A stretch of DNA of 64,000 nt from Gammaproteobacteria bacterium (GTDB lineage: Bacteria; Pseudomonadota; Gammaproteobacteria; UBA6429; Thiohalophilaceae), in contig JAPHRJ010000042.1 of the NCBI GenBank assembly GCA_026196045.1, positions 4,151 through 68,150 of the forward strand. Direction: 5' to 3'. Under the pieces are notes generated by a model. It was not told the DNA's origin and searched no databases. It was given only the letters and a program-made list of their open reading frames with translations. The translations under genes and the position numbers were made by a program. Of this stretch, positions 148-54,861 are shown piece by piece (positions within the stretch are counted from its first letter, which is position 1; each line of letters opens with the position of its first letter).

Positions 148-714
148 TCAGGCTTTCGGTAAAGTCACACCTGTCTGGCCCTGATATTTACCCGCCCGAT
201 CACCGTAAGAAACCTCACAGACTTCGTCAGACTCAAAAAAGAGCATCTGGGCAACGCCTTCATTGGCATAAATTTTTGCTGGTAGTGGCGTGGTATTGGA
301 AAATTCCAATGTCACATGCCCCTCCCATTCGGGTTCCAGTGGAGTTACATTCACAATAATGCCACAGCGGGCATAAGTCGACTTGCCAAGGCAGACGGTT
401 AGCACGCTGCGTGGGATGCGGAAGTATTCAACCGTGCGAGCAAGCGCAAAGGAGTTAGGGGGAATAATGCAGACATCACCCTTGTAATCAACAAAGCTCT
501 GATGATCAAAATCCTTGGGATCAACAATGGCTGAATTAATATTGGTAAAAATCTTGAACTCATCGGCACAGCGAACGTCGTAGCCATAACTCGATGTACC
601 ATAGGATACAATTCGGCCCTGCTCATTTTCCCGAACCTGACCTGCCTCAAATGGCTCAATCATGCCCTGTTCCTGCGCCATGCGCCGTATCCACTTATCG
701 GCTTTAATACTCAT
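148..714 (-). CDS. dcd: dCTP deaminase
   Basis: 188 aa, [15 protein letters not shown]...[11 protein letters not shown]. Full-length resemblance to bacterial Dcd, with typical length. Confidence 0.95.
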
Positions 715-827
715 TGCTATTCATTTTCCTGTATTTATGACAGGCTATTTTAATAGGGACGCCAGGAAAATACTATCGGCAATATTATTTATCCGTAATT
801 ACTAGCGGCAACAACCGTGCTATAAGT

Positions 828-3065
828 CTATTCAATAACCTGGGGGCCTAATACACGTAATACTTCGTAAATTGTCGTTTGACCACTATCTACTTTTTTA
901 TAGGCATCCTGCAATATGCTACTCATACCCTGTTGTGTGGCCGCCTGAGTAAGTTCTCCAATATTGGCACCGGCAGCAATCATATTTTTCAAATCTGTGC
1001 CGGGCACCAGAATTTCATAGATACCAATTCGCCCGCTATATCCCGTATGATTACATTGTTTACAACCTGTTCCCTCAAATGTCTGCAGATTGTCATTTTT
1101 AAACACAGGACCCAGTTGATGTAAATCCTCGTCCCGAATCGCAACAGGCGCTCTGCAGACCTCACAGATCTTGCGCACCAGCCGCTGGGCGATAATTGCT
1201 TCTAATGCGGTCGATACAATATAGGGCTTTAGCCCCAGATCCAGAAGTCGAGCGATAGTTGCCACCGCCGAGTTGGTATGCAGTGTCGAAAAAACCAGAT
1301 GCCCTGTCAGGGCCGCATTAAAGGCCACTTCTGCAGTTTCAATATCCCTAATCTCACCCAGAAGAACAACATCGGGATCCTGGCGCAGAATGGCACGAAG
1401 TACCGTTGCAAAACTGAGACCGACCTTATCCTTCACCATCACCTGGCCGGCCATATCCAGATAGTATTCAACCGGGTCCTCAATGGTGACATAGTTCTTA
1501 TCGGCTGTAGCATTATGCTGCAGGAGTGAATACAGGGTTGTAGTTTTGCCGCTTCCAGTAGGCCCGGTTGCGAGGATAATGCCCTGAGGCTTTTTAATTA
1601 CATTGACCACTCTATTGAAGTCCTCTGTTTCCAGACCCAACTGGTTAACTTCATGGATCGATGAATTACGATCCAGTAAACGCATAACAATCTTTTCACC
1701 ATTAATGGTCGGTAATGTTGAAATACGCAGGTCAATAATGCGCATTGGTGTCTTTACCGTAATACGACCGTCCTGTGGTCGACGACGCTCTGTAATATCA
1801 AGTTCAGCCATCACCTTGATACGTGAAACCAGCGACATATGCAGGCTATGGGGTATCTGAATCTTGTCAGACAAAATACCATCGGTTCGATAACGCACCA
1901 CGACACTATTGGTACGAGGATGAATATGAATATCACTGGCCTGATAACGTATTGCTTCCAGAATAATGGCATTGACCAGGCGAATGGCCGGAGGCTCATC
2001 TGAACCGTGTAATAAATCCTCCAGTGTCAGATCATCATCATCATCAAGAATGATCTCGATCGCCTCAAAGGGATCTGTACTTGATATCAGGGTTTCCAGA
2101 TCATCAAAATTGATATCCTCATCACCATAAACCTCGGTAATTTTATCCTGAATATCGGCAGCATTCGCCATGACGGCCTGGATCTCCAGACCAACGGTAA
2201 AGCGCAGATCATCTATCAGCCCCATATCCATCGGATCTGCCATAGCCAGTAACAAACGCCGGTTTTCCTGTTTTAAAGGTAAAACTAACTGTCGCTCACA
2301 AAAGCTGCGCGGGATCAATGATGATATAGCCGAATCAACCTGGAACTCAGCTAGTGAGACTTCATCGACCAACAAATCTTTTTTTAGAATATCGCGAATT
2401 TTTTTCTCCGCGACCCATTCTTTATCCAGGAGGATCCGGATGGTGGGAATTTTCTTCGCCTGCTGTATTTTATAAAGTTCCTGTACCTGTTTGTCATTCA
2501 GGAGATTGCATTTATGCAACATAATAGCAAGCTGACTGCGATTACTGACAGCCAGTTTGGACAGCTCCGATATTTCCTTCGCCCTTTTCTCATTTTGTTT
2601 TTGCAGTATTTTATTGCGCTGAATCAGATCATGCTGTTCCAGTGCCAGACTGACAGTAACGCGCAGGTCATCATCATTCCAGGGCTTGAGGATGAATTTA
2701 TAAACGGCACCTTCCTTGATAGCACTCATTACCGCATCCGTATCTGCGTGGCCCGTTAGCATAATACGGATAGTTTCAGGATGTTGTTTCTTGACCCTCC
2801 TCAGCAACTCACCACCATTCATCACTGGCATATTGAAATCAGAAATTATGAGCTGGAACACCGATCCATCCATAACTTTTAACGCCTCCTCACCACTGCC
2901 TGCAGTCATGATGTGATAGTTTTCCTGCCGGAACACTCGCTTCAAGGCATTTAGCACATTGGGTTCATCATCGACCAGGAGTATATGATAACCTGAGCTA
3001 GTCTCAACGGGCTGTTCGCTATCACCGGACTCTCCGGCTGTAAATAGTGAGGAATATTGTGACAT
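828..3065 (-). CDS. Response-regulator receiver fused to a GspE/PilB/MshE-family (type II/IV secretion) ATPase
   Basis: Receiver at aa ~27-145 (LLVDDEPNVL, acceptor in IISDFNMP, KPWNDDDL). T2SSE_N-like segment at aa ~240-310 (LIPRSFCERQLVLPL...LLLAMADPMD). ATPase core: Walker A GPTGSGKTTT, Asp box VTIEDPVEY, Walker B DPDVVLLGEIRD, His box GHLVFSTLHTN, and a tetracysteine CEVC...CKQC. The ATG lies 3 nt after the stop of the upstream kinase. Confidence 0.9.
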   Translation of the reverse strand: MSQYSSLFTAGESGDSEQPVETSSGYHILLVDDEPNVLNALKRVFRQENYHIMTAGSGEEALKVMDGSVFQLIISDFNMPVMNGGELLRRVKKQHPETIRIMLTGHADTDAVMSAIKEGAVYKFILKPWNDDDLRVTVSLALEQHDLIQRNKILQKQNEKRAKEISELSKLAVSNRSQLAIMLHKCNLLNDKQVQELYKIQQAKKIPTIRILLDKEWVAEKKIRDILKKDLLVDEVSLAEFQVDSAISSLIPRSFCERQLVLPLKQENRRLLLAMADPMDMGLIDDLRFTVGLEIQAVMANAADIQDKITEVYGDEDINFDDLETLISSTDPFEAIEIILDDDDDLTLEDLLHGSDEPPAIRLVNAIILEAIRYQASDIHIHPRTNSVVVRYRTDGILSDKIQIPHSLHMSLVSRIKVMAELDITERRRPQDGRITVKTPMRIIDLRISTLPTINGEKIVMRLLDRNSSIHEVNQLGLETEDFNRVVNVIKKPQGIILATGPTGSGKTTTLYSLLQHNATADKNYVTIEDPVEYYLDMAGQVMVKDKVGLSFATVLRAILRQDPDVVLLGEIRDIETAEVAFNAALTGHLVFSTLHTNSAVATIARLLDLGLKPYIVSTALEAIIAQRLVRKICEVCRAPVAIRDEDLHQLGPVFKNDNLQTFEGTGCKQCNHTGYSGRIGIYEILVPGTDLKNMIAAGANIGELTQAATQQGMSSILQDAYKKVDSGQTTIYEVLRVLGPQVIE

Positions 3066-3068
3066 GGT

Positions 3069-4298
3069 CTACTCCTTCACAGGCAAGATAATTGTGAAAG
3101 TAGTTCCTGTATCTTCCTGACTGTCTACCGTAATAGTACCGTTATGTGCCGCGATAATGTCACGACTGACTGTTAAACCCAGACCTGTTCCTTCACCAAC
3201 ATCATGCGTAGTATAAAATGGATCAAAAATCCGCCTCATAACCTCGGCGGACATACCCTTACCATTGTCACTAACCCGTATCACAATCTCCCTATTTATT
3301 AATCCGGACTCAATTTGAATCTTACCAGCAGCCTTTTTAATTGCCGTCACTGCATTCAATAATATATTGAGAAATACCTGCGCCAAATGCCCTGGTCGAC
3401 AACGCGTCAAAGGTAGTTCTCCTAATGCCAGCTCTAGTTCAGCCTTTTGTCCGATCTGGTTGGTAGCTACATTGCACACAGAGTGTATGATCTGATTTAT
3501 ATTCAGTGTTGCTTCTTCAGTGCGATCAACATTTGAAAAGTCCTTGAGATCAGACACTATACCTGCAACACGCTCTGCACCACTAACGCTTTCCTTCAGT
3601 AGTTCATTAAAGTCTTGCAACATATATTCAATATCACATTCATCCCATACCCTCTTCAAAACTGGCCCATTCAGTTCTTTTTGTATTTGTTCACTAAACT
3701 TAACAATATTTGAGACATAGTTTTGTGCGGTGGCAAGATTGCTAGTAATAAAACCAACTGGATTATTAATTTCGTGTGCAATACCGGCGGCTAACTGACC
3801 GACTGAGGCCAGTTTTTCAGCCTGATAGAGTTGACGCTGGGCATTTTCGATTGTTTTAACCTGTTCCTCTACACGTTGCTCCAGATTCTGCGCCAGTGCT
3901 TTGTATTTTTCCTCTGAATCCATCAAGGCTTCATGTTTCTTCTGTAGCGCTTCATAATCGGCATGAACTGCTTCAACATGTAAATTTGATGCCATCAGAT
4001 AACGTTCAGCACTTTTTAATATCTGTTCCACAAGAATTGTTGCGCTATGTGTCACCTTACTGTCACCTGCTTGCAAATAGGCAACGGGCTCCAGCTGAAT
4101 GGTTAACGGGATCCTGATACTGTCTATCCTGTCATTGTATTCACCCAGCACACTGTCGCCAGCCATATTCAGTATGCAAACTGACTCACCTAGTAAGCTC
4201 CTCAATGCCTGCAACAGTTTTTCCCTGTTAACGCCTTTTAACAGGTCATCTATACTGAGTTCACGATCAAATGCCGCAATGGGGGTTTCCTTCATCAT
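3069..4298 (-). CDS. Cytoplasmic sensor histidine kinase with an uncharacterised ~100-aa N-terminal domain
   Basis: No hydrophobic segments, a coiled coil, HisKA H-box AAGIAHEINNPVGF, and HATPase_c (DNGKGM, GTGLGL). Its ATG overlaps the GTPase stop (ATGATGA at 4293-4298). Confidence 0.9.
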   Translation of the reverse strand: MMKETPIAAFDRELSIDDLLKGVNREKLLQALRSLLGESVCILNMAGDSVLGEYNDRIDSIRIPLTIQLEPVAYLQAGDSKVTHSATILVEQILKSAERYLMASNLHVEAVHADYEALQKKHEALMDSEEKYKALAQNLEQRVEEQVKTIENAQRQLYQAEKLASVGQLAAGIAHEINNPVGFITSNLATAQNYVSNIVKFSEQIQKELNGPVLKRVWDECDIEYMLQDFNELLKESVSGAERVAGIVSDLKDFSNVDRTEEATLNINQIIHSVCNVATNQIGQKAELELALGELPLTRCRPGHLAQVFLNILLNAVTAIKKAAGKIQIESGLINREIVIRVSDNGKGMSAEVMRRIFDPFYTTHDVGEGTGLGLTVSRDIIAAHNGTITVDSQEDTGTTFTIILPVKE

Positions 4299-4960
4299 GG
4301 CACACCCGTTTCGGTTGAAGTCATAACCGACATAATAAAGTCATGCTCTTTTATACCGTGCTTTGTATGCAGTTCGAAACGACGTTCCATAGCCGGGTAT
4401 ACCTGTCGCAGCAATTCAACAAAGGTTTCCTTTACACCATCACCATTCAATGCCGAACTGAAAAAAAGTGACCACTGAGTCTTATCCCATCGAGCAGAGA
4501 CTTCATCCTTACTGACAATATCGGGTAGATCGCGTTTATTAAACTGAATCACCAGGGGTAAAGACTCAAAATCCAGACCCGCCCGTGCACAATTGTCTGC
4601 AAGGTTTTGAAATGACTGAGCATTGTTCATACTCTGGCTGGATTGAGAATCGGCCACAAACACCACACCATCAGCACGGGACAATACCGCCTTACGGGTA
4701 CCGTCATGGGCAACCTGGCCGGGAACGGTAAACAGTTTAAACTTAATCAGTAGACCGGAAGGGGCACGAAAACCAATCGGAAGCAGGTCGAAAAACAAGG
4801 TACGATCATTTTTAGTTTCCATCGTCATGATGTCGCCCTTAAGTTCAGGCCGCAGCATGTCATACAAGCGCATCAGGTTTGTTGTCTTGCCACTTTGAGC
4901 AGGACCATAGTAAACCAGCTTGATGGTCAGTTTTTGTAACTGTTCATCGTACTCAGCCAT
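4295..4960 (-). CDS. MglA-family Ras-like small GTPase
   Basis: 221 aa. IKLVYYGPAQSGKTTNL (P-loop), DRTLFFDLLP (MglA-type switch I with the intrinsic Arg), TVPGQ (G3), VIQFNKRD (G4), SSAL (G5). Collinear with my recollection of Myxococcus MglA (KIVYYGPGLCGKTTNL...DRTLFFDFLP...TVPGQ...NKRD). Confidence 0.85.
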   Translation of the reverse strand: MAEYDEQLQKLTIKLVYYGPAQSGKTTNLMRLYDMLRPELKGDIMTMETKNDRTLFFDLLPIGFRAPSGLLIKFKLFTVPGQVAHDGTRKAVLSRADGVVFVADSQSSQSMNNAQSFQNLADNCARAGLDFESLPLVIQFNKRDLPDIVSKDEVSARWDKTQWSLFFSSALNGDGVKETFVELLRQVYPAMERRFELHTKHGIKEHDFIMSVMTSTETGVP

Positions 4961-4969
4961 ATTGTAGAC

Positions 4970-5503
4970 TTAAACATCATCCTCACTCAGGATAATAGAG
5001 CCATCCGTGGCCCAGTCCACCGAAAATAATTCCGGATGTTGATTTTTATATTGTTCAAGTATCTGTTTTCGTTTATCGAGTTCTTTCTGCTGTGCCCTGA
5101 CCTGGTCAGCAAGATGACGGTTTTCTACTAGCACATCTCGGAATGCCAATGCCTGTTTAATGGTAGAAATAAGTTCATAATCCTGCCAGGGCTTGGTTAC
5201 AAAGCGGTATATTTCGGCGTTATTAATTGCACCAAGCAGGGCTTCCAGATCCGTATGTCCACTGAGGATCAAACGCATAGAATTGGGTTGCAGGTTTTTT
5301 ACCTCACTGAGAAATTCGACCCCATTCATCTCAGGCATACGGTAATCAGAGAGAAACAAATCAAAATTAGTAACCTGAGCGCGTTTAAGTGCATCTTTCA
5401 CATTGGAATATGATTCTATTTCCCAGTCAGTCTGTCCCCTGAATATACGCTCCAGAGCTTTAAGAATATTTTCCTCGTCATCAACAAGCATAATCTGGTA
5501 CAT
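4970..5503 (-). CDS. Stand-alone response-regulator receiver with a ~55-aa coiled C-terminal tail
   Basis: MYQIMLVDDEENILK..., acceptor LFLSDYRMPEMNG, KPWQDYEL. I chose the internal ATG at 5503 because GGAGAA lies 6-7 nt upstream and the longer ORF would overlap the upstream gene. Confidence 0.85.
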   Translation of the reverse strand: MYQIMLVDDEENILKALERIFRGQTDWEIESYSNVKDALKRAQVTNFDLFLSDYRMPEMNGVEFLSEVKNLQPNSMRLILSGHTDLEALLGAINNAEIYRFVTKPWQDYELISTIKQALAFRDVLVENRHLADQVRAQQKELDKRKQILEQYKNQHPELFSVDWATDGSIILSEDDV

Positions 5504-5504
5504 G

Positions 5505-6851
5505 TTATTTCTCCTTATCCGCCAATACGTAAATTTCCAGCTCATAATCTATCGCTTCTTCAAGATTATAAATACGTTCAATAATGCCTTCGGTCAGACA
5601 ATGTCCCTGAGAGAGCAACAGTATGTCATCCTGTATGATTAAATCCCGTGAGAGCACCATACCACTAGCCAGCCCATTTGATTTTAAACGGCGTTCAGCT
5701 ACATGTTCACTGCGTTCCGCCAGACGACTGATAACTTTGCGGAATATATCAACAGATTTAGGGTCATAAAAACTACCCCGGTGTCTGATGATATAGTCTC
5801 GCGCATCACTTGAATTCAAAAATTCTGTCACCAACAGTCCCTGTTGGAGATCATAGTAGTCACCCGCCACTTTTAGTATAAGTGCGGCGACAGGGATAGA
5901 ATCACCTTTCCGTTTTTCTGGATAGCCTGAACCATCAATATGTTCGTGTTGATGATGTATCAGACGTGCCGCATCCTGTAATGGTTCCAGAGCCATTAAT
6001 ATTCCTTCACCCACAATAGGATGTTGAGTATATGTTTTGTGCTCACTATCATTCATAGTATTGAATGATTTTTTCAGTAGTGTATCGCTGAGGCTGATTT
6101 TACCGACGTTACGTAATAGTGCGGCAAAGCGAAGCTGTTGAGTATCAGCCTCATCCATGCCCATTTCTATTGCCATATGTTCAGCCAGTTCAGCGATCTT
6201 ACGTGTCCGACCACTGGTCTGATGTTCACGCATTTCAATAATATTTGAGAACACTTCAACGGTAGAACGATAACTATCATTTAATGACTCATGTGCAAGT
6301 TCCAGGAAACTCACGGTTTGCTGTAACTCCCCTGTGCGTGCGGCTACTTTATCTTCCAGGCCAGCATTTAAGGTCTTAAGCTGTTTATTCTGCTTTCTAA
6401 TTACGACTTCAAGACGACGGCGTTCTTTTTCAAGCCGTTGTTGCTCAAGTGCCCGCTGCACAGTAAGTAGAATATCATTATCTTCCCATGGCTTACTGAT
6501 ATAGCGATAAATTTGTCCTTTGTTTACTGCATCAATCGTTGATGTAATATCTGAATAGCCTGTTAATAATATACGTACTGTCATAGGCCAGCGCTTAGCA
6601 ACTTCTTCCAGGAATGCAGCCCCATCCATCTCGGGCATACGCATATCAGAAATCACAAGGTCAATGGAATAGTGCTCCATAAACTTCAAACCTTCTGCCC
6701 CACTTTCTGCGGTTAAAATATGATAACCATGAGGACGAAAAAGGCGCTTTAAAGATGACAGGATGTTTGTCTCATCATCAACAAACAATAGGGTCGGAGG
6801 GTGTGACTTTTTCTGACCTGTCTGTGCTTCGGTATTAATTACTTTATCCAT
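5505..6851 (-). CDS. Response regulator with a degenerate HD-GYP output domain (RpfG-like architecture)
   Basis: Receiver (LLFVDDETNIL, VISDMRMPEMDG, KPWEDNDIL), a coiled coil, then an HD-GYP domain with HEHIDGSGYP. The canonical LHDIGK reads LRNVGK (CGT AAC at 6108-6113). The start is set at MDKVINTE (6851), just after the upstream stop. Confidence 0.88.
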   Translation of the reverse strand: MDKVINTEAQTGQKKSHPPTLLFVDDETNILSSLKRLFRPHGYHILTAESGAEGLKFMEHYSIDLVISDMRMPEMDGAAFLEEVAKRWPMTVRILLTGYSDITSTIDAVNKGQIYRYISKPWEDNDILLTVQRALEQQRLEKERRRLEVVIRKQNKQLKTLNAGLEDKVAARTGELQQTVSFLELAHESLNDSYRSTVEVFSNIIEMREHQTSGRTRKIAELAEHMAIEMGMDEADTQQLRFAALLRNVGKISLSDTLLKKSFNTMNDSEHKTYTQHPIVGEGILMALEPLQDAARLIHHQHEHIDGSGYPEKRKGDSIPVAALILKVAGDYYDLQQGLLVTEFLNSSDARDYIIRHRGSFYDPKSVDIFRKVISRLAERSEHVAERRLKSNGLASGMVLSRDLIIQDDILLLSQGHCLTEGIIERIYNLEEAIDYELEIYVLADKEK

Positions 6852-6858
6852 AATTAAT

Positions 6859-8139
6859 TCATGCTTCCTTTGCTTCTTCTGAACTCTGGGAAACAGGCAA
6901 CCAAACTTTGAAAGTTGTTCCTTTTCCAGCTTCACTCTGAACATCAATGTTTCCATGGTGTTTATTTATAATCCCATACGATAATGATAATCCAAGTCCC
7001 GTCCCCTTCCCTACTTCCTTTGTTGTAAAAAAAGGATCGAATATCTTTTTCATATTCTCCGGTTCAATTCCTTTTCCTGTATCACTTATTTCTATCCATA
7101 TCTGCTCATCCTGTTTTCCAGTACGAACAGTTATTACGCCACGTTCTTCAATTGCATGTGCGGCATTTACCAATAGATTCATAAAGACCTGATTTACCTG
7201 TGATGCAAGACATTCAATATCAGGTAATTCGCCATATTCTTTTATGACTTCCGCCTTATATTTTATCTCGTTATTTACAATATTCAGTGTGCTGTCCAGG
7301 CCACGATGAATATTCGCCCATTGCCATTCAGCTTCATCAACATGAGAGAAGTCCTTGAGGTCCTGAACAATCCCTTTTACTCTCGCAATACCTTCGCGGG
7401 ATTCAGAGACCAGTTCCTGCATGTCACGTTTTAAATAGCCTAAATCCAGTTCCTGTTTAAGTTTTAGTAACTGTTCAAGTTTATCGCCACCTGATTCAAT
7501 CATTGACTCCAGGTTTTCATACGCCTCCAGTAACTGACAAATATCAGAAACATAAGTTTGTAACGTAGCTAAATTCGAAAAAACATATCCCACGGGGTTA
7601 TTGATTTCATGGGCAACGCCAGCAGCAAGCTGGCCTATTGATGCTAGCTTTTCTGACTGTAGTAATTGTTCATGCGTTTCATGTAAATGTTTATTCGCTT
7701 CCAGAAGATCGTCATGACTTTTTTTCAACTCCTGCTGTGTCTTTCGCGATTCCTCATCTGCACGATACAAACGAATTGCGGTATTAATACAGTGATGCAA
7801 TATTTCTGCATTCAGACTGTCCTTTGAAAGATAGTCTGAGGCACCGGCACGCAGTAGATCTACAATCAGTCGCTCATCAGGCTGGCCTGTCAGAATAACC
7901 ACCGGTATACCCAGTTTCTTCTCCTGGATACTGTTTAACATTGTCAGCCCATCACCATCTGGCAACATATAATCAAGTAATGCGCAGTCATATTGCGTTT
8001 TTGTCATGGCTTCAATAGCACCAGCGACACTATTTGACTCATCAATTCTGATATCAGGTTTACTTGCGCTCAGCGCACGGCAAACCGCCATGCGATCCAC
8101 GTCGTCATCATCCACAACAAGTATTTTTAGTTCACTCAA
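6859..8139 (-). CDS. Hybrid receiver-histidine kinase (N-terminal REC, then HisKA and HATPase_c)
   Basis: ILVVDDDDVDR with acceptor ALLDYMLPDGDG. H-box AAGVAHEINNPVGY, paralogous to the kinase at 3069-4298. DTGKGI and GTGLGL. TTG start with GGAGAA about 8 nt upstream. Confidence 0.9.
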   Translation of the reverse strand: MSELKILVVDDDDVDRMAVCRALSASKPDIRIDESNSVAGAIEAMTKTQYDCALLDYMLPDGDGLTMLNSIQEKKLGIPVVILTGQPDERLIVDLLRAGASDYLSKDSLNAEILHHCINTAIRLYRADEESRKTQQELKKSHDDLLEANKHLHETHEQLLQSEKLASIGQLAAGVAHEINNPVGYVFSNLATLQTYVSDICQLLEAYENLESMIESGGDKLEQLLKLKQELDLGYLKRDMQELVSESREGIARVKGIVQDLKDFSHVDEAEWQWANIHRGLDSTLNIVNNEIKYKAEVIKEYGELPDIECLASQVNQVFMNLLVNAAHAIEERGVITVRTGKQDEQIWIEISDTGKGIEPENMKKIFDPFFTTKEVGKGTGLGLSLSYGIINKHHGNIDVQSEAGKGTTFKVWLPVSQSSEEAKEA

Positions 8140-8179
8140 CCTACCGTTCTCCTATTGGTAAAATAACCGATACTGTATA

Positions 8180-8605
8180 TTACGGTAACCTTATTAATGA
8201 CCAGAACTGATATAAAGTATGGATTGCTTCATTAAATTTTTCCGGCTCGATTGGTTTCAGCACATAACCTGACACATTCAGTTCATAGGCTGCCTGTCGA
8301 TCCCTGTCCTCATCAGAGGTTGTTAATATCACGACACAGAGTGCACGCAAGGCCGGATCAGCCCGTAACTCGCGTAAAAATTCTATGCCATTCATTTTTG
8401 GCATATTTATATCCAGCAGGATAATTTTTGGCATGGGTGACAGTTTTGTTTCATGCTTCCCACGCAACATTGCCAGTGCATCAACACCATTACCTGCGAT
8501 ATATAACGGGTTATTAATCTTATGAAGACTGAAAGCACGTTGTACATTCATGGCATCTACTTCATCATCATCTACCAGCATAATGGCTACTTTATCGTCC
8601 AGCAT
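8180..8605 (-). CDS. Single-domain CheY-like response regulator
   Basis: 141 aa, IMLVDDDEVD, ILLDINMPKMNG, YVLKP. GGGAGA RBS upstream. Confidence 0.9.
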   Translation of the reverse strand: MLDDKVAIMLVDDDEVDAMNVQRAFSLHKINNPLYIAGNGVDALAMLRGKHETKLSPMPKIILLDINMPKMNGIEFLRELRADPALRALCVVILTTSDEDRDRQAAYELNVSGYVLKPIEPEKFNEAIHTLYQFWSLIRLP

Positions 8606-8617
8606 CCACTTATCTCC

Positions 8618-11242
8618 CTATGCAACCTGTTCCTCACTAGTCTCTACCGATACGACCTTTCCTTTTACCGGCAGGGTAAAACGGAATACGGCACCTTTTC
8701 CTTCTTCTGATTCTATTTCAACCTCTCCACCCAGTTCATTGACAATTTTCTTTACCAGCGTCAGTCCAACACCGGTGCTTTCTACACTATCGCGGGCCTG
8801 CAGCGTCTGAAACATATTAAATATTCTGTCATGGTATTCAGCGGCAATACCTGGCCCATCATCAGCAACACTGAATTCATAATATAGTACATTAAAGTCA
8901 GAATTATTCTGGCTATCCATATTGTCTTTACTGGTGATCAGTTTGCCCTCCAGTGTCCGTTCACGAACAGAAATATGAATATGGCCGTTATCCTTATGAT
9001 GGTACTTGATTGCATTACTAATCAAATTTGAAAAAACCTGAAATAGGGGAACACGGGCCGTCCTGACTAACGGCATACCAGGACTGATATCAATAGACAG
9101 ATCCTTGCAATCCAGTCCCTGCAGAATGTCCTTCAGCAGTCCAGATACATCTACCATTTCCATTTCCATATCCACGCGACCGGCCCGTGAATACTGTAAA
9201 ATGCCATTAATCAGTCCTTCCATGCGTGCTACTCGCCCACGCAACAGATCCATCTGCTTGCGAGTGCTGTCGGTCATAACGTCAGTAAGGTCTTCTTCTA
9301 TCCACTGAGAGAGGTTTGCAATTGCACGTAGTGGTGCCTTGAGATCATGAGATGTCACATAGGCAAACTGATCCAGTTCATGGTTGATACGCTCCAGTTC
9401 AACAAAAGCCCGCTTGCTTTCGGTTACGTCCGTATGTGAACCGGCAATTCGTACCGGGAAACCGTCCTCATCCAGCAATGCCAGACCTCGACAATGCATC
9501 CAGAGGTATTCGCCCGTTTTGCTTCGTACCCGGTATTCGATTGAAAAGGAACTGTTATCACCCGCCATACAGTCTGCCCATACATCCAGTGCATAGCCCA
9601 GATCATCGGGATGAATAAGACTCTGCAAGGCGATAAAGTTATTTTCAACCTCATACTCGGCATAACCCAGCATATTTTTCCAGCGCGATGAAAAATATAT
9701 CTGATCACGAGTCAAATCCCAGTCCCAGATACCATCCTGCGTTCCCCTTGTTACCAGTGAAAACCGCTCCTCACTGAGACGCAAGGCTTCCTCACTTTTC
9801 CTGCGTTGGGAAATATCACGCACAATACCAATAAAATGGACGCCTTCATGTTCCATTGGCAACTCACTTACTGACAGCTCTATTGGAAATTCATTACCAT
9901 CACTCCGTAATGCCGTTATCTCACGCGGTCCCTTGTTGATTATCTCTCCTTTGAGGGTGCCCCAATAATTTTCCTGATCAATATCTTGCTTATCGGTATC
10001 GGGAGCGAGCATTAACATACTTACATTCCGGCCTATCACTTCCCTGGCGTAATAACCAAACATACATTCGGCCGTGCGACTAAAACTTTCCACAACGCCT
10101 TGTGCGTTAATCGTAATAATACCATCGGCCGCATTCTCAATAATGGCATTTATCTTTTGTTTACTCTGTGTAAGCGCAACGACACTCTGCCGCAGATCTA
10201 CCTGCATCATTCTGCGTGCGCGCTGATTACGCAAAAACAGTATTAATATCACGACAAAAACGACCAGTACTAATAATGAAATTAACCACAGCAGACTCTT
10301 TTTCTTTTGTAACTCTTTTGACTGACTTTTAAACATCCCATCAAGTTCATCTTCTGTCGCATCAAATAGCCTGTATAACACACCCAATGTTTTCGTCCCT
10401 GCAGCGAAATAATTTTCACTCGACATACGTAATTGCGGCGTATCCCCTGTCTGTTTCTGTACCAGCAGTAAGAAATACCTGATACCTTCATTTACATCCT
10501 GCAGCTGTGGTAACAAGTTTGACCGCAGTTCCGGGTTGACAAGAAAAAGCACGTCCATATTCCGTTGCAGTTTATCCATTTCAATCTTAATAGACTCCTG
10601 CAGTATCGTGATTGGTTTAGTATCTGTCTCCGCAAGTTCGCTGTGCGTCACAATACCCGTTCCCATTCCTCTTATCTGGGCAATACTTTCTATTAACCTG
10701 GGTAACACAATTATGGATTCAGCAAGGTAGTAGGTATCCCTTCTTTTATCGGCGGTAAGACGAAAGAGATCAATCCCTTCATGCATGGAGGAGAGGTACT
10801 TTTCAATTATTACAGTATGTGCCGCAAACGTACCTGCTGGTGACATACGTGGATACTGTTGTAACAGTACATGCCAGTCTCTAAGCCACACCTTTTGGTT
10901 TTCTTTTACACCCGGCATCATTTGAATGGTGGGAAAACGATCCTGTATTTGCTGAATGTCCGCATTAATGTGTTGCGCCAGCTCTGGCAAGCTATCCCTG
11001 AAACCCTCTTTTCCGCTAAGGTAAGCGTAAGCCATACCACGATGTTGCTGAATATGATCAAGTAATACCCGCATGGATTCAATATAATCAATACCGATTT
11101 TCTGCTGGCTAATCAGGTGGCTTCTTGCCTCAAGCTCACTGCTAAGCAGATAAATGATGCTCGCAAAGGGCAACACCAGCATCAGTAACAGTAAGGTAAG
11201 GCTCAGGCTGTCTGTTGGTATTTTTCTATTGTGGTTGACCAT
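8618..11242 (-). CDS. Membrane sensor histidine kinase: periplasmic NIT-like domain, then two PAS domains, HisKA and HATPase_c
   Basis: Two TM segments (LTLLLLMLVLPFASIIYLL and LWLISLLVLVVFVVILILFL) bracket ~300 aa containing HIQQHRGMAYAYLSG and IAQIRGMGTGIV, which resemble NIT-domain motifs. Two PAS modules follow. H-box YVTSHDLKAPL, DDGPGI, GVGL. Confidence 0.85.
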   Translation of the reverse strand: MVNHNRKIPTDSLSLTLLLLMLVLPFASIIYLLSSELEARSHLISQQKIGIDYIESMRVLLDHIQQHRGMAYAYLSGKEGFRDSLPELAQHINADIQQIQDRFPTIQMMPGVKENQKVWLRDWHVLLQQYPRMSPAGTFAAHTVIIEKYLSSMHEGIDLFRLTADKRRDTYYLAESIIVLPRLIESIAQIRGMGTGIVTHSELAETDTKPITILQESIKIEMDKLQRNMDVLFLVNPELRSNLLPQLQDVNEGIRYFLLLVQKQTGDTPQLRMSSENYFAAGTKTLGVLYRLFDATEDELDGMFKSQSKELQKKKSLLWLISLLVLVVFVVILILFLRNQRARRMMQVDLRQSVVALTQSKQKINAIIENAADGIITINAQGVVESFSRTAECMFGYYAREVIGRNVSMLMLAPDTDKQDIDQENYWGTLKGEIINKGPREITALRSDGNEFPIELSVSELPMEHEGVHFIGIVRDISQRRKSEEALRLSEERFSLVTRGTQDGIWDWDLTRDQIYFSSRWKNMLGYAEYEVENNFIALQSLIHPDDLGYALDVWADCMAGDNSSFSIEYRVRSKTGEYLWMHCRGLALLDEDGFPVRIAGSHTDVTESKRAFVELERINHELDQFAYVTSHDLKAPLRAIANLSQWIEEDLTDVMTDSTRKQMDLLRGRVARMEGLINGILQYSRAGRVDMEMEMVDVSGLLKDILQGLDCKDLSIDISPGMPLVRTARVPLFQVFSNLISNAIKYHHKDNGHIHISVRERTLEGKLITSKDNMDSQNNSDFNVLYYEFSVADDGPGIAAEYHDRIFNMFQTLQARDSVESTGVGLTLVKKIVNELGGEVEIESEEGKGAVFRFTLPVKGKVVSVETSEEQVA

Positions 11243-11456
11243 AACTATCTAACTATGTCGCTGATTTCTGTCCCTTCAGACACGGTGCCGCCTGGCGTTT
11301 AAAGCAGGCTTTCCTTCTCAGTTATTAAAATCGTAATATTTTGCCGATTAAATTTATTCCAAAAATAAACGTCTATTTTCAGTTTTTTAGCGGCTTTTTT
11401 TTTGAGAACTTTAAAATTGGGCGTTATAACCCATACTAAAAAGAATAGTTTAATGG

Positions 11457-12302
11457 TCAGGACGCACTGTCAATCAGCTGATCAGAAAACCGGTTCAGGT
11501 TTTCAATTTCGCCCAGATAACTACGAATAATGTCCCAGTTCAGGCCTAAACGTGCGAGTACAGAGGATTTCAGGAAGGGAATAAGATCATCACCGCCATG
11601 GCCAATATTCAAACCACGACAAAGGATATCAGACAGGTGGATCAGTTCAGCAAGGGGCAAGGACGTTGCAGGCAACGAGTGATGACTCTTTATCGCATCG
11701 ACAACGGGTTTGGGAAGTTTCCAGCTCTGAGCGACCTGTGCCCCAACAAGCGTATGGTCAAAGCCGAGCACAGCCTGTTCCGCTTCCCTGATTAAGCAAT
11801 CATGCTCATCTCGATAGGCAAGTACTCGGGCGAAATCCTCTTCAAAGTAGACCGCCATTACCACCTTACCAATGTCATGCAGCAAACCCGCCGTAAACGC
11901 CAGCTCCTGATCCATGCCAGCGTGGTGAGCTAATACTCGCGCACAAATCCCCGTTCCAATCACATGTTGCCAGAACGAATGCCGGTCAAAGTTTTGATCC
12001 TCTGCGGGAGGAAAGTGCCCAATAATGCCAGCGGCAGTAACGATATTATATAAAGTATGGATACCCAACATGGTACCGGCATCTTTTAGAGAACCAATAT
12101 GCGCGGATAAACCATAAAAAGGTGAATTGGCAATATGTAAAATGCGGGCTGCAAGAGCTTGATCATGACTGGCTTCTTCCATCAACTCAGCCATTGCAAC
12201 ATCATCCCGTTGGAGTTGCGTCAACAGGTGCGTAACAATAACCGAAAGTGACGGTAACTGTTGAATTTCTTTACTAAGACTTTCACGTGTCAACTTAGCC
12301 AT
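11457..12302 (-). CDS. HDOD domain protein
   Basis: 281 aa. LPSLSVIVTHLL..., ILHIANSPFYG, GLLHDIGKVVM. These are typical HDOD signatures. Confidence 0.85.
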   Translation of the reverse strand: MAKLTRESLSKEIQQLPSLSVIVTHLLTQLQRDDVAMAELMEEASHDQALAARILHIANSPFYGLSAHIGSLKDAGTMLGIHTLYNIVTAAGIIGHFPPAEDQNFDRHSFWQHVIGTGICARVLAHHAGMDQELAFTAGLLHDIGKVVMAVYFEEDFARVLAYRDEHDCLIREAEQAVLGFDHTLVGAQVAQSWKLPKPVVDAIKSHHSLPATSLPLAELIHLSDILCRGLNIGHGGDDLIPFLKSSVLARLGLNWDIIRSYLGEIENLNRFSDQLIDSAS

Positions 12303-12323
12303 TCTGGCATCCGATAATTTTCA

Positions 12324-12650
12324 TTATTCAAGCGATTCCAGGCGATAGGCCATTAAAATGTTTTTCAGCTGTTGCATTTCCACATCATCCTGTACATGGC
12401 GAAACCGATGTTCAAACTGAGTGATACAGGTATTTCGTAAAGCCGCGATCTCTTCAGCACTCAGCTCCTGCTCAAACTCAATTGCAAGACTATTGATACC
12501 CCGTTTGCTCAGACTATCCAGTTGTTTTTTTGTTAATACAACACCAGAAACCATCAGGCAATTTCCACTGGCATCCAGTACATCCTGGGCTAATGTCATA
12601 CCTGCTGTTACCTGATCCAGGCCAAGTATTTTACTGCTCATTATTGTCAT
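12324..12650 (-). CDS. Small hypothetical protein, translationally coupled to the upstream receiver-PAS gene
   Basis: The ATG at 12650 overlaps the upstream TGA (ATGA). The sequence MTIMSSKILGLDQVTAGMTLAQDVLDASGNCLMVSGVVLTKKQLDSL resembles, from memory, the short N-terminal module seen on many HD-GYP and GGDEF regulators. That family assignment is not verified. Confidence 0.5.
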   Translation of the reverse strand: MTIMSSKILGLDQVTAGMTLAQDVLDASGNCLMVSGVVLTKKQLDSLSKRGINSLAIEFEQELSAEEIAALRNTCITQFEHRFRHVQDDVEMQQLKNILMAYRLESLE

Positions 12651-13474
12651 TCTGTATGCACCGGTATAATCACAAGAATCACACCTTCGGCATTCGAACT
12701 CTGGCCTATCTGCCTGCAATAGACATCAATATCATTGCCATTAACAACAAGACCTCGTGCATGCGCTTCCTGTTCTTCAACTGCACGTTTACATAACTCA
12801 CAGACTGCCGGGGTTATGATATTAGAAACATCTTTCCCTACAAGCGCAAAGTCTTTTCCATTCAGCAAGGTATAAGCTCTACGATTTGCCAGAACAACCG
12901 TTCCACTGCCATCAATACCTATGACGCCAACGGGCAGGTTCTCTAATACTTCCTGTGAAACCTGTAAAGCATGCATATTTAACAGAACTTCACGGGTTTT
13001 CTCTTCTACCCGTTGTTCCAAACCCTGATTAATTTTTTCCAGCTCAATGTTCGCTTCTTTCAGTTCCTGAGTCAGACGTTCATTTTCCCGCCCGAGCTCA
13101 TAATAACGAAATGCCTCTTCTACATTGGCGCGTAATAATTCATCTTCCCAGGGCTTGGTCAGAAATTTGTATATGGCTCCCTGATTGATTGCTTCTGTCA
13201 CTGTATTCAGATCGGTATAGCCGCTTAACACCATACGAACAGTATCCGGGTATGTCTCACGTACTTTGGAAAGAAACTGAACACCAGTCATTTCGGGCAT
13301 ACGTTGATCTGAAAGAATGACTCCGACACCAGCATGTTCGGCCAGTAGCTGTAAACCTTCCGTACCACCGCCCGCTTTTAATATACGATAACCGTCGCGT
13401 CGTAATACCCGTGTTAGTGAACGCAGGATATTTTCCTCATCATCAACCAGTAAAATAGTCCGTTCATTACTCAC
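12647..13474 (-). CDS. Response regulator: receiver, coiled coil, C-terminal PAS-like domain
   Basis: ILLVDDEENILRSL, ILSDQRMPEMTG, KPWEDELL. The C-terminus LENLPVGVIGIDGSGTVVLANRRA is PAS-like. The ORF track starts at TTG 13483, but the AGGGGA spacing favours GTG at 13474. Confidence 0.82.
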   Translation of the reverse strand: MSNERTILLVDDEENILRSLTRVLRRDGYRILKAGGGTEGLQLLAEHAGVGVILSDQRMPEMTGVQFLSKVRETYPDTVRMVLSGYTDLNTVTEAINQGAIYKFLTKPWEDELLRANVEEAFRYYELGRENERLTQELKEANIELEKINQGLEQRVEEKTREVLLNMHALQVSQEVLENLPVGVIGIDGSGTVVLANRRAYTLLNGKDFALVGKDVSNIITPAVCELCKRAVEEQEAHARGLVVNGNDIDVYCRQIGQSSNAEGVILVIIPVHTE

Positions 13475-13932
13475 TAAACTCAATCCCCTACGATTAAACT
13501 TACTAAAATTCTTTTATAGTTACTAGCCTGTTCAACCGCTTTTATGGAACGTATAAACAACACCAGACATAGCTACATTCCAGTTTAAACAAATGTTATC
13601 TACAAAAAATTGTATCTAATAAAATTGCCTAAGTAATTTATCCGGATTTTTTTTAAGAGTAATAAATATTTTTCTTAACTCTATAATTATATATATCGAC
13701 TTTATGACAATTTTCTTCAGTCTTCAATCGCAAGGACAACTATGTTTTCATTAGCAGACTAAACACGCGTCTACATTTAAAATGTATCTAAATAATTTAA
13801 CGGTTCAGATATCAGAAAATTACAGGCAAAATGATCTCTAGTGAAAAACCGGGCCGGAAAGATCGACATCGGTATTCAGCTATGAAAAGTATGGCGCTAA
13901 CCATGATATGAAAGTGATAGACCTGTCACCAT

Positions 13933-13986
13933 AAAAAAAGCCGCCATACATACAGAATATACACTCTGTATCCATGGCGGCTTTTT
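13933..13986. terminator. Bidirectional rho-independent terminator; it serves apbC/mrp on the minus strand
   Basis: aaaaaaa-GCCGCCATacATACAGA-atatacac-TCTGTATccATGGCGGC-ttttt. This is a two-tier stem flanked by an A run and a T run, 180 nt downstream of the apbC stop. Confidence 0.65.
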
Positions 13987-14166
13987 CAGGCTCCGCTATA
14001 TAACCAGACTAAATCAGCATCAAGGTGATTTAGCCATCCCACAAATTGCGCTGTACAGAATAACTTAAGGGATTTTGGACAGGGTGTAAAATAACGAAAA
14101 AGCAGCGTTTACATATAGTAAATGAGCAGCATTTTAAGTTACTTTACAACGCCGTAAGGAAACCCC

Positions 14167-15258
14167 CTAATTGTTCTGAATAACAATGTTAGGGAAGCTA
14201 GCACTATAGTCCTTAGACTGCAGTGACAACTTGGCCGCAATGCGGCGGGCAATATCACGATAAATCTGAGCAATACGGCCTTCAGGATCAGCAACAACAG
14301 AAGGCTTGCCTTCATCTGTACCTTTACGAATAGACATTTCCAAAGGTAAGGAACCCAGCAGATCGACATTGTGCTGCTCGGCCATGCGTTCACCACCGCC
14401 AGCACCGAAGATATGTTCTTCATGACCACATTCACTACAAATATGAATACTCATGTTTTCGACAATACCCAGTACAGGTACTTCGACTTTCTCAAACATC
14501 TTCAGACCTTTGCGCGCATCCAGCAGGGCAATATCCTGAGGTGTGGTTACGATAACTGCACCCGTGACCGGAACCTTTTGCGCCAGCGTTAGCTGAGTGT
14601 CACCTGTACCTGGTGGCAGATCGATAATCAGGTAATCAACATCTTTCCACCTGGTTTCGTTTAATAGTTGCTCCAGCGCCTGGGTAACCATCGGGCCACG
14701 CCAGATCATCGGAGTTTCTTCATCAATCAGGTAACCAATCGACATGGACTGAATGTGATAGCTGTTCATGGGTTCCAGGCTCTTGCCATCGGCCGACTCA
14801 GGTTTCGCACTAACACCCAGCATACGAGGCTGGCTGGGACCATAGATATCGGCATCCAGAATACCGACTGTGGCACCTTCCGCTGACAATGCCAGCGCCA
14901 AATTAACCGAGGTAGTGGATTTACCCACACCTCCTTTACCGGAAGCCACAGCAATAATATTCTTCACGCCAGAAATGGTGTTCACACCTTTCTGAACCGC
15001 ATGTGAAACAATTTTATGGGTAATATTGAAAGTTGCTTCACTGACGCCATCAACCGCCTCAACTTTTTCTTTCAATTTTGCGGCCATATCCGCCTTGTAG
15101 CCATTAACTGGAAAACCCATTTCAATATCAACACTGACCTTGTCACCATCGATTTTAATATCCTTGATGGCCTTATTCGAAACTAAATCCCCTTCCAGAT
15201 AGGGGTCAATATATGCCTTAATGGCATCTTCAATCTGTGAGCGGGCAACTTCAGCCAT
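14167..15258 (-). CDS. apbC: Fe-S cluster carrier ATPase Mrp/ApbC
   Basis: N-terminal MIP18-like domain, then the deviant Walker A VASGKGGVGKST, then CSECGH. The start is set at MAEVARSQ (15258), with GGAGAG 6 nt upstream. It is divergent from metG, as in E. coli. Confidence 0.93.
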   Translation of the reverse strand: MAEVARSQIEDAIKAYIDPYLEGDLVSNKAIKDIKIDGDKVSVDIEMGFPVNGYKADMAAKLKEKVEAVDGVSEATFNITHKIVSHAVQKGVNTISGVKNIIAVASGKGGVGKSTTSVNLALALSAEGATVGILDADIYGPSQPRMLGVSAKPESADGKSLEPMNSYHIQSMSIGYLIDEETPMIWRGPMVTQALEQLLNETRWKDVDYLIIDLPPGTGDTQLTLAQKVPVTGAVIVTTPQDIALLDARKGLKMFEKVEVPVLGIVENMSIHICSECGHEEHIFGAGGGERMAEQHNVDLLGSLPLEMSIRKGTDEGKPSVVADPEGRIAQIYRDIARRIAAKLSLQSKDYSASFPNIVIQNN

Positions 15259-15515
15259 TCTTCTCTCCTGCAATCAAAAGGGTTATTAACAATTTTCCGG
15301 CTAATAACCTAGTAAAATGATAAACTATATTTCAGGGGGCATATTACACAAAATCCTGTCAGATAGCCACTGCTGAAAATAAGCCTGCTATTCTACAGGG
15401 AATCGCCATATTTTTCGCCTATCGGGTGGCTCAAACAGGCCAGAACTGATAGTGTATCGCCCGCCGAAAACAGTATTAAAATCAGTTAAATCAACAAAAT
15501 CCGTGAATATAAACT

Positions 15516-26098: not shown

Positions 26099-26977
26099 CT
26101 AGCGACTCAGCTGAACCTCTACCCGGCGGTTCTTTTTACGCCCTGCTGCGGTACGGTTACTGAATTTGGCTTCCAGCTCATTATGGGCAACCACTTTGAT
26201 TTTACTGGCCTTAATACCATTCTCCACAAAATATTTCTTAACCGCATTGGCTCGAGCACGAGCAACCTTGATGTTAACCCGTTGCAGTCCCTTACTATCG
26301 GTATACCCGTCTATTCTTACACTGCGTACGCTCGGATCAGCCTTCATATATCTGATCATCCTGTCCAGTTCCAGTTTGGCGCTACTGTTCGGCTCGATCT
26401 GACCTTTAGCATAAAGAATTACATTCTGTTTGATATCGGTGAAATTAACTTTCAGTAAGCCCTGTTCACAGTCCTGGAATTCATCCCAGGCTGAATTAAA
26501 ATTCATGCCCAGAATCCGTACTGAAATCTCGTCCGTTTCATCGGACCAGTCACGGTACTTCAGGTGTAAATCCATGCCTTCCTGGAGTTCAGCGACCATT
26601 CGAGTCGCCCATGAGTTACTCAGATAAAACGGACTTCTACCCTGAATAACCGGTACAGAACCAAAGTTCCTGGCAAAGGAAAAATGTTTCCATTCTGGAG
26701 GTAATGACTGCAGTCGAGCTTCACCGGGCCTGGTCGCCGGCTGATTTACATTGACGACAAATTCCAGCTCACTTTTGATTTTACGTAGAAATACGGCTTC
26801 ACCATAAACAGAAATTTCATGCACCATCCGACAGACCACCGGCGAGGACTCCACGTACCAGCGAGCTTCTTCAAGCGTGGCTTTATGGAACTGGTATCCA
26901 GCCCATAGCGGTGGATTCAGGCACAGCGTGCTCAAAATAAATATGAGAAGTAATGATGAACGCATTTTTCCAGACAT
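26099..26977 (-). CDS. MotY-like protein (N-terminal MotY-type domain plus C-terminal OmpA/peptidoglycan-binding domain)
   Basis: ARWYVESSPVVCRMVHEISVYGEAVF, PPEWKHF, and YRDW...F.DC...LL are collinear with my recollection of Vibrio MotY. The C-terminus has OmpA_C motifs (GYTDS...RARANAVKKYF...NRRVEVQL). The start is uncertain (26977 or 26965) and a signal peptide is present. Confidence 0.65.
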   Translation of the reverse strand: MSGKMRSSLLLIFILSTLCLNPPLWAGYQFHKATLEEARWYVESSPVVCRMVHEISVYGEAVFLRKIKSELEFVVNVNQPATRPGEARLQSLPPEWKHFSFARNFGSVPVIQGRSPFYLSNSWATRMVAELQEGMDLHLKYRDWSDETDEISVRILGMNFNSAWDEFQDCEQGLLKVNFTDIKQNVILYAKGQIEPNSSAKLELDRMIRYMKADPSVRSVRIDGYTDSKGLQRVNIKVARARANAVKKYFVENGIKASKIKVVAHNELEAKFSNRTAAGRKKNRRVEVQLSR

Positions 26978-27121
26978 ACCTCGGAAAATGCAAAGGTCGT
27001 ACCAGAATTGGAGAGAATAGAAGATAACGAGAGAAAAACACTTCAACGCAAAGACGCGGAGCTTGCAAAGAATTAATAAAGATAATCTTTGCGCATTCTG
27101 CGCCTTTGCGTTAGTAAGCTT

Positions 27122-31310: not shown

Positions 31311-31326
31311 TGTTAAACCTCGGTAA

Positions 31327-54849: not shown

Positions 54850-54861
54850 GAGAACCCTGCC

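Follow-up and report, generated by a model that had tools for sequence, protein, structure and literature searches.

Introduction

To our knowledge, the control of MglA-type small GTPases, as well as their targets outside Myxococcus, is largely unknown. In a survey of 2014 a coupled MglB gene within four genes of the GTPase gene was usual, though not obligatory, and 59 of the 449 MglA homologues were listed as orphans (PMC4316618); this class, about one in eight of the homologues, was then left aside. Group 1 of the family is recognized by an intrinsic arginine beside the G2 threonine and by TVPGQ in the G3 motif (PMC4316618). The actinobacterial conservons are composed of the membrane kinase-like protein CvnA, the Roadblock protein CvnB, CvnC and a Group 2 GTPase (GTPGQ motif, no arginine finger), and they have no response regulator (PMC4316618). 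Here we describe a cassette of three genes on the minus strand of a 64-kb stretch of DNA (contig JAPHRJ010000042.1; the whole stretch is referred to below as the window) from a gammaproteobacterial metagenome bin. The gene of an MglA-type GTPase (4295-4960) is followed there by the genes of a soluble histidine kinase (3069-4298) and of an ATPase of the PilB/GspE type that carries its own receiver domain (REC) at the N-terminus (828-3065).

The cassette is widespread, coherent and apparently uncharacterised, and the mechanism that would operate at its core is proposed below. It gives one clade of orphan MglA proteins two fixed partners, namely a kinase whose input domain is its own and a motor ATPase fused to a receiver. 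No description of the cassette, of its members (six locus tags were queried) or of a receiver-fused PilB was found in the literature outside subscription journals, and a receiver-fused PilB is not mentioned in a 2024 review of PilB regulation. A preliminary description of the locus, made from the sequence alone, took positions 3069-5503 as the unit, i.e. the GTPase, the kinase and a stand-alone receiver protein upstream of them. The pairing of GTPase and kinase is retained here, and the extent of the unit has to be corrected, as the cassette runs on into the ATPase gene at 828-3065.

Results and Discussion

The GTPase

The GTPase consists of 221 amino acids and is labelled by NCBI as "GTPase domain-containing protein". 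The motifs named in the preliminary description are all found in the translation: GPAQSGKTT (residues 19-27), DRTLFFD (52-58) with the intrinsic arginine Arg53, TVPGQ (78-82) with Gln82, and NKRD (141-144). The first of them contains the G1 P-loop GxxxxGK[ST], of which G19, P20, G24, K25, T26 and T27 are invariant in 120 orthologues. The D52-R53-T54 triplet, which aligns with DRTLFFD of M. xanthus MglA, is invariant in the same set, and the G3 motif, being TVPGQ and neither DxxGQ nor GTPGQ, is invariant or nearly so. In a phmmer search the solved MglA proteins of M. xanthus and Thermus thermophilus are matched at E 3.6e-42 to 8.9e-42, and the next family is Rab at E 8e-5. The AlphaFold2 (AF2) model of the GTPase (pLDDT 83, pTM 0.85; low confidence in switch I) retrieves only MglA structures at Foldseek ranks 1-14, with TM of 0.80-0.86 normalised by target length, and the identity to MglA of M. 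xanthus and T. thermophilus in the structure-based alignment is 39-42%. Judged by its sequence, the protein is a catalytically complete Group 1 MglA.

The C-terminus of the GTPase is prolonged by about 25 amino acids (residues ~187-221, window 4295-4400, minus strand). This extension is specific to the family, is modelled confidently and is absent from the 195-aa MglA of M. xanthus. It contains an extra helix (205-214) with the invariant F208; H201 is nearly invariant. The extension could be a partner-binding element.

Conservation of the three-gene cassette

Eighty loci from species-representative genomes were retrieved through an alignment of the closest homologues, and the locus of Sulfuricella denitrificans was added with its precomputed Pfam annotation; pattern matching yielded at least 524 stretches that code for a relative. 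The layout of the loci was mapped by tblastn with domain pieces. In every one of the 76 loci whose downstream DNA extends to 1.7 kb or more, the order is GTPase, kinase, REC-MshEN-T2SSE ATPase. Measured from the GTPase in the tblastn maps, the kinase linker lies at about +320 nt, the kinase core at about +490, the receiver of the ATPase at about +1230, MshEN at about +1900 and T2SSE at about +2300. The cassette occurs in gammaproteobacteria (Sedimenticola, Methylomonas, Oleiphilaceae, Pseudomonas/Stutzerimonas, Halomonadaceae), betaproteobacteria (Gallionella, Sulfuricella, Zoogloea, Dechloromonas, Azoarcus/Aromatoleum, Janthinobacterium) and deltaproteobacteria/Desulfobacterota (Desulfosarcina, Desulfatibacillum). 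Cultured carriers include species of Dechloromonas, Zoogloea, Methylomonas, Janthinobacterium and Pseudomonas/Stutzerimonas.

The kinase starts with the ATG of ...CCATGATGAAG..., which shares 4 nt (ATGA) with the stop codon of the GTPase gene. The tight coupling of these two genes, pointed out in the preliminary description, is thus real in the window, and it is conserved in the relatives: the GTPase/kinase junction is a 4-nt ATGA or GTGA overlap in 31 of 78 loci and does not exceed 20 nt in 72 of them, and in 20 loci the kinase and ATPase genes likewise overlap by 4 nt, all these counts being possibly slightly inflated by a choice of start that favoured the codon nearest to the upstream stop. 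A first pass of open reading frame (ORF) calling gave apparent kinase-ATPase fusions of about 1100 aa. These are artefacts of ORF calling in GC-rich genomes, because the start nearest to the GTPase stop gives separate ORFs; in loci L004, L021 and L026 the kinase ORF then has 400-407 aa and stops ahead of the ATPase.

The median identity across the loci amounts to 63% for the GTPase, 66% for the ATPase and 32% for the N-terminal domain of the kinase. The GTPase and the ATPase are the two best-conserved members of the cassette, the kinase being less so. At loci lacking the genes of the stand-alone receiver protein or of an HD-GYP protein, the upstream neighbours are unrelated.

Search for MglB

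The signalling island that surrounds the cassette has no gene of a Roadblock/LC7 (MglB) protein, in agreement with the preliminary description: none of the island genes matches Pfam Robl_LC7, and tblastn of the 64-kb window with M. xanthus MglB (a query identical to PDB 6h5b_B) gives a best E of 4.2. A canonical mglB adjoining the GTPase gene in close relatives had been named there as a finding that would refute its idea. No such gene is conserved there, the best E in the 81 loci being 0.43 with the same query, and of the 92 small ORFs without assignment that flank the cassette in relatives, no more than two share any one Pfam family. A conserved mglB beside the cassette is therefore excluded, and a lone Roadblock gene can still be present among the unlisted singletons.

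Several proteins of the 2014 survey probably belong here. Daro_0968 (214 aa), HCH_00229 (216 aa), MEALZ_0921 (239 aa), Metme_1144 (220 aa) and Dalk_0302 (216 aa) are Group 1 MglA proteins with no MglB within four genes, and in the tables of the survey Dechloromonas aromatica and Hahella chejuensis have no MglB at all, coupled or orphan (PMC4316618). From their size and taxonomy we infer that these five orphans are members of the present GTPase family. The survey lists Daro_0968 and Dalk_0302 as orphan MglA, leaving their neighbourhood undescribed, and states that Group 1 neighbourhoods "vary widely"; the cassette is not described in it (PMC4316618).

The histidine kinase and its N-terminal domain

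The kinase (409 aa) is formed by an N-terminal domain (N-domain; residues 1-100, 3999-4298), by a conserved helical linker of the coiled-coil type (residues 101-160, 3819-3998), which joins the N-domain to the phospho-accepting helix, and by a catalytic core of HisKA and HATPase_c assigned with Pfam (3069-3818), all on the minus strand. In HisKA (E 2.6e-7) the phospho-accepting His175 of the AHEINNP motif is invariant. In HATPase_c (E 1.1e-26) DNGxG, FDPF(F/Y)TT and GTGLGL are conserved, and the kinase as a whole retains its H, N, G1, F and G2 boxes. By these motifs the core is that of an orthodox two-component histidine kinase. Neither a transmembrane segment nor a Pfam sensor domain was found in the kinase. 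Its paralogue within the island is the REC-kinase encoded at 6859-8139, with 41.5% identity between residues 88-409 of the former and 91-418 of the latter; since the paralogy covers just these parts, the N-domain holds the place of the receiver of the REC-kinase.

The N-terminal region is present in all 120 full-length orthologues of the kinase (50-67% identity), where D11, L19, L20, L28, L36, G37, E70 and E76 are nearly invariant, as is the start of the linker, R99-Y100-x-M102-A103-S104. The consensus of the linker reads RYxMASxLHxEAVHADYE...SEARYK...LEQRV. In 20 more diverse orthologues from the loci F10 is invariant and R12 nearly so, within the N-terminal motif F-D-R-E/D-L. As was recognized at the outset, residues 1 to about 100 form an unassigned domain: Pfam gives no match with the single sequence nor, apart from coiled-coil noise in the linker, with the 20 diverse orthologues at E up to 10. 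The AF2 model of the N-domain (pLDDT 87.8, pTM 0.78) is a compact alpha/beta structure with helices 16-20 and 25-36, strands 41-43, 49-51, 61-67 and 70-77, and a long helix 80-104 that continues into the linker. Foldseek with this model finds nothing in the PDB below E 0.08.

A Roadblock/LC7 fold, which had been among the folds envisaged for this domain, was considered and is not supported. The elements of the model follow one another as alpha-alpha-beta-beta-beta-beta-alpha, strands 2 and 3 having no helix between them, as against alpha-beta-beta-alpha-beta-beta-beta in Roadblock proteins. A profile of 189 N-domain sequences aligned by hhalign with M. xanthus MglB yields a probability of 0.9%, and the best Roadblock match of Foldseek is Lokiarchaeal 8yqk, at ranks 26 and 47 (E 1.3-1.9, probability 0.20-0.28, TM 0.41-0.45).

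A word-indexed search with the N-domain alone gave 2 relatives, and searches with the full-length kinase and exhaustive searches of representatives were used instead. Exhaustive phmmer detected the N-domain in 36 clusters among 1.84 billion representatives, nearly all of them kinases of about 400-420 aa or fragments. A hidden Markov model (HMM) of the N-domain matches 72 of the 78 kinases of the loci. The domain is shorter in Pseudomonas, and the kinases of Desulfobacteraceae (L060, L068, L071, L073-L076, L078) are 465-479 aa long with a longer N-terminus to which the HMM match is weak or none; this N-terminus may be a different input domain. In a reverse search of metagenomes through the N-domain and linker, which gave 11 loci of fairly close relatives, the GTPase gene lies directly upstream in all 10 loci that have upstream DNA. 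The N-domain is found almost only in this kinase family, and such a distribution among sequences fits a GTPase-sensing input domain.

The receiver-fused ATPase

The ATPase (745 aa) consists of the N-terminal receiver, MshEN and a complete T2SSE domain (E 3.4e-130). The DD/D/T/K residues of the receiver are intact and strongly conserved in 68 orthologues, and so is Walker A, GPTGSGKTT. The scores of the protein lie below the NCBIfam cut-offs both for PilB (TIGR02538, 568 vs 675.65) and for GspE (TIGR02533, 560 vs 630.25). On these grounds it is a member of the PilB/GspE family that is not assignable as an orthologue of PilB or of GspE. The two motifs of MshEN for binding of cyclic di-GMP (c-di-GMP) look degenerate when compared by eye with what we take to be the binding motif, its R-L-G positions reading Q-L-A and P-x-I. 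Binding of c-di-GMP was lost in XpsE through changes in the corresponding region, and fusions of a receiver to MshEN have been catalogued, not studied, in the same work (PMC5013675). The ATPase is the probable phospho-acceptor and output of the cassette.

Proposed mechanism and alternatives

The cassette is read as a linear module for four reasons: the three genes invariably occur together, they overlap, the N-domain is exclusive to this context, and the soluble kinase has no other input. An MglA-type GTPase working without MglB would be produced together with a soluble dimeric histidine kinase, whose sole input element would be the small family-specific alpha/beta domain at its N-terminus. 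This domain would read the nucleotide state of the GTPase and may also stimulate GTP hydrolysis, thus supplying the missing GTPase-activating protein (GAP). The conserved helical linker would carry the signal to the catalytic core and so set autophosphorylation, after which the kinase would phosphorylate the receiver of the downstream PilB/GspE-like ATPase. Phosphorylation of the receiver may then switch the assembly or the activity of the ATPase, or its recruitment to a type IV pilus or a machine like the type II secretion system encoded elsewhere. Cross-talk with the paralogous receivers and the paralogous kinase of the surrounding two-component/c-di-GMP island is probable. We infer in this scheme all protein-protein contacts, the direction of the signal and the cellular output. 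The complete chain, from the state of the GTPase through the kinase to phosphorylation of the ATPase receiver, is given by us somewhat less than an even chance. That the N-domain is an undescribed effector or GAP module of MglA unrelated to MglB, and that the GTPase directly gates the kinase and thereby phosphorylation of the PilB/GspE-type motor, is more doubtful and is put forward tentatively. If so, a pathway leading from a G protein through a two-component system to a pilus or secretion motor would be conserved in many species of proteobacteria.

Several points weigh against such a chain. The direction of signalling cannot be read from synteny. Of the parts of the cassette, the N-domain evolves fastest (its median identity being about half that of the GTPase, 32% vs 63%), and Desulfobacteraceae keep the GTPase and the ATPase in spite of the differing N-terminus of their kinases. 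Foldseek ranks GAF domains (Nlh1, KdpD, CodY) first for the N-domain, weak as these matches are (E 0.088-0.42, query-normalised TM 0.42-0.52), and because the best matches are GAF sensors, a small-molecule input for the kinase is kept as a possibility. Pilin, platform and secretin genes are absent from the 64-kb window, which makes the output a guess. Alternatively, GTP-bound GTPase would bind or localise the ATPase directly, the N-domain would be a minimal GAF/PAS-like sensor of a metabolite or protein, and the kinase, acting on the receiver of the ATPase, would supply the latter with another input independent of the first. MglA of M. xanthus reportedly activates type IV pili through SgmX. 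Such stimulation of pili, the restriction of the fold matches to GAF domains, the better conservation of the GTPase and the ATPase (medians of 63% and 66%) than of the kinase, and the retention of the GTPase in Desulfobacteraceae with their different kinase N-terminus all speak for a direct action on the motor. However, the GAF matches are non-significant (E >= 0.088); the N-domain has 4 strands in about 100 aa, is about 40 residues shorter than the matched GAF chains (140-155 aa) and bears no Pfam sensor signature; and its near confinement to the cassette kinases would be odd if it sensed ligands in general. It is, moreover, the GTPase and kinase genes that overlap. Direct action of the GTPase on the ATPase is considered rather unlikely.

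The polarity may also be the opposite one, as in the actinobacterial conservons, where the GTPase was proposed to be the output of a kinase system without a response regulator (PMC4316618). The kinase or its N-domain would then be a guanine nucleotide exchange factor or a GAP, the GTPase would be the output with effectors elsewhere, and the receiver-ATPase would be a parallel phospho-acceptor. It agrees with this that efficient hydrolysis by a Group 1 MglA depends on a helper protein, none being encoded nearby. Nevertheless, a dedicated response regulator follows the kinase in 76 of 76 loci, unlike in the conservons, a soluble kinase lacking another sensor would be left with no input of its own, and Roadblock CvnB, CvnC and the Group 2 motif GTPGQ are all absent, so that we regard this polarity as quite improbable. 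That this is an ordinary MglA/MglB polarity module with its mglB relocated in the genome, the linkage to two-component genes having no mechanistic meaning, is very unlikely in our opinion. The examined part of the genome is 64 kb, and some hosts do carry a separate MglA-MglB pair (Desulfatibacillum Dalk_2485; Group 3 systems in methanotrophs); but the linkage is invariant in three proteobacterial classes and the genes overlap, the 81 loci show no conserved Roadblock gene nearby, the survey has no MglB for D. aromatica and H. chejuensis, and the MglB genes of the other hosts adjoin their own MglA paralogue. The least probable explanation, to which we attach hardly any weight, makes the stand-alone receiver protein upstream of the GTPase (REC-only; 4970-5503, minus strand, 177 aa with a helical tail of about 55 aa) a RomR-like exchange factor. 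RomR, likewise a receiver-domain protein, is said to act on MglA, and the distance of 9 nt between the two genes given in the preliminary description agrees with the coordinates. The likeness to RomR itself, suggested there, is not supported. The REC-only gene directly precedes the GTPase in just 29 of 78 loci, in most of which an HD-GYP gene lies just upstream of it. The protein aligns with positions 1-147 of the NosR-family REC-HD-GYP profile (E 2e-47), and its best solved relative is the REC-HD receiver 2rjn (E 1e-24); RomR is absent among the 23 PDB matches listed for it (E <= 1e-8), a comparison that did not include direct alignment to RomR or RomX. It is, finally, 37-41% identical to three other receivers of the island, namely 41% to that of REC-PAS, 38% to that of the ATPase and 37% to that of the HD-GYP protein.

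The surrounding signalling island

The genes of the island (828-13483), whose domains were assigned with Pfam and NCBIfam, are closely packed and all lie on the minus strand; the operon structure was judged from gene spacing, and a scan of 500-14200 for promoters and terminators gave counts at or below chance level. Upstream of the GTPase, from whose ATG the TAA stop of the REC-only gene is separated by 9 nt, lies the REC-only gene, whose own ATG is 1 nt past the stop of the HD-GYP gene and is preceded by AAGGAG. By its profile match, its solved relative and its identities to the island receivers, the REC-only protein is an RpfG/HD-GYP-type receiver with a helical linker; it appears to be a part of an accessory c-di-GMP module, perhaps as a phosphate sink or a partner for helical linkers. 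The next gene, 5505-6956, encodes a REC-HD-GYP c-di-GMP phosphodiesterase of the NCBIfam NosR family (550 bits vs a cut-off of 400), the true start of which is probably an internal Met at ~6851. As an accessory of the cassette, an HD-GYP gene is found no more than 1.5 kb upstream of the GTPase in 37 of the related loci. Further genes encode the REC-kinase (6859-8139), a REC protein (8180-8605), a PAS-PAS histidine kinase (8618-11242), an HDOD protein (11457-12302), a small conserved ORF (~12324-12650) and a REC-PAS protein (12647-13483). The island holds four paralogous RpfG-type receivers (REC-PAS, REC-HD-GYP, REC-only and REC-ATPase), two paralogous kinases and the HDOD protein, a composition which suggests a branched phosphorelay with cross-talk.

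The small ORF of about 108 aa, with the likely start MTIMSSKILGLDQV..., has no Pfam match. At least 10 related loci keep it in the position between REC-PAS and HDOD (41% identity to the relative at 5488-5808 of L081, for example), and on visual comparison its sequence is similar to the C-terminal segment of the REC-HD-GYP protein of the island. It was considered as a hidden MglB or RomX and was rejected on account of this resemblance and of the missing Pfam match.

The island is flanked by housekeeping genes, dcd (148-714) on one side and apbC/mrp (14167-15273), metG and rnf on the other, apbC/mrp-metG occupying 14167-17555. In L072 a dcd homologue (85% identity) likewise follows the cassette, and the site next to dcd may be a recurrent insertion site.

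Elsewhere in the window, a minus-strand ORF of 1019 aa (27122-30181) fuses the E2 component of a 2-oxoacid dehydrogenase (lipoyl, E3-binding and acyltransferase domains) to a complete dihydrolipoamide dehydrogenase (E3), and an E1 beta-like gene (30330-31370) adjoins it. The minus strand also encodes another sensor kinase, with MASE1 and PAS (40003-42081), a MotY-like protein associated with the flagellar stator (MotY_N and OmpA; 26099-27046), and two overlong permeases of ABC transporters (553 and 755 aa; 53188-57129), in each of which BPD_transp_1 is only C-terminal.

Comparison with known systems

The GTPase shares with MglA of M. xanthus and T. thermophilus the P-loop, the arginine beside the G2 threonine, TVPGQ with the catalytic Gln, and NKxD. 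A connection to type IV pili, known for MglA of M. xanthus, has its counterpart here in the linkage of the GTPase gene to a motor of the PilB type. In contrast to both these proteins, the present GTPase has no MglB nearby, carries an extra C-terminal helix and is accompanied by fixed partners, the kinase and the receiver-fused ATPase; its range, too, is different and comprises beta- and gammaproteobacteria and Desulfobacterota.

The ATPase resembles MshE, PilB and GspE in T2SSE, MshEN and Walker A. It differs from them by the N-terminal receiver, by scores below the cut-offs and by its location away from pilus and secretion genes. If the proposed mechanism is correct, this would be, as far as we have found, the first described ATPase of the PilB/GspE type regulated through its own receiver.

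In SasA, a soluble kinase, the N-terminal domain binds the nucleotide-dependent switch KaiC and sets autophosphorylation. A SasA/KaiB-like N-terminal domain of kinases is mentioned in PMC3164672. The cassette would be analogous to SasA-KaiC in the proposed logic only; there is no homology, the N-domain of SasA being KaiB/thioredoxin-like.

With the actinobacterial conservons the cassette has in common that an MglA-family GTPase and a histidine kinase are encoded in one operon, the G protein and the kinase apparently acting as a single signalling device (PMC4316618, PMC13343842). Unlike in the conservons, the kinase is soluble, the GTPase belongs to Group 1, no Roadblock protein or CvnC is present, and a response regulator, the ATPase, is always there. 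No CvnB or CvnC domain is encoded by the island genes in the window or in Sulfuricella, which carry only REC, HD, HDOD, PAS, GAF, kinase and T2SSE domains, and in place of the Group 2 signature (GTPGQ, Thr for the arginine finger) the GTPase has TVPGQ and R53. The cassette is thus a system that works like the conservons (AGPS) and is not a member of them. Were the proposed chain true, it would represent a second and simpler design, beside the actinobacterial conservons, by which bacteria link a G protein with a histidine kinase.

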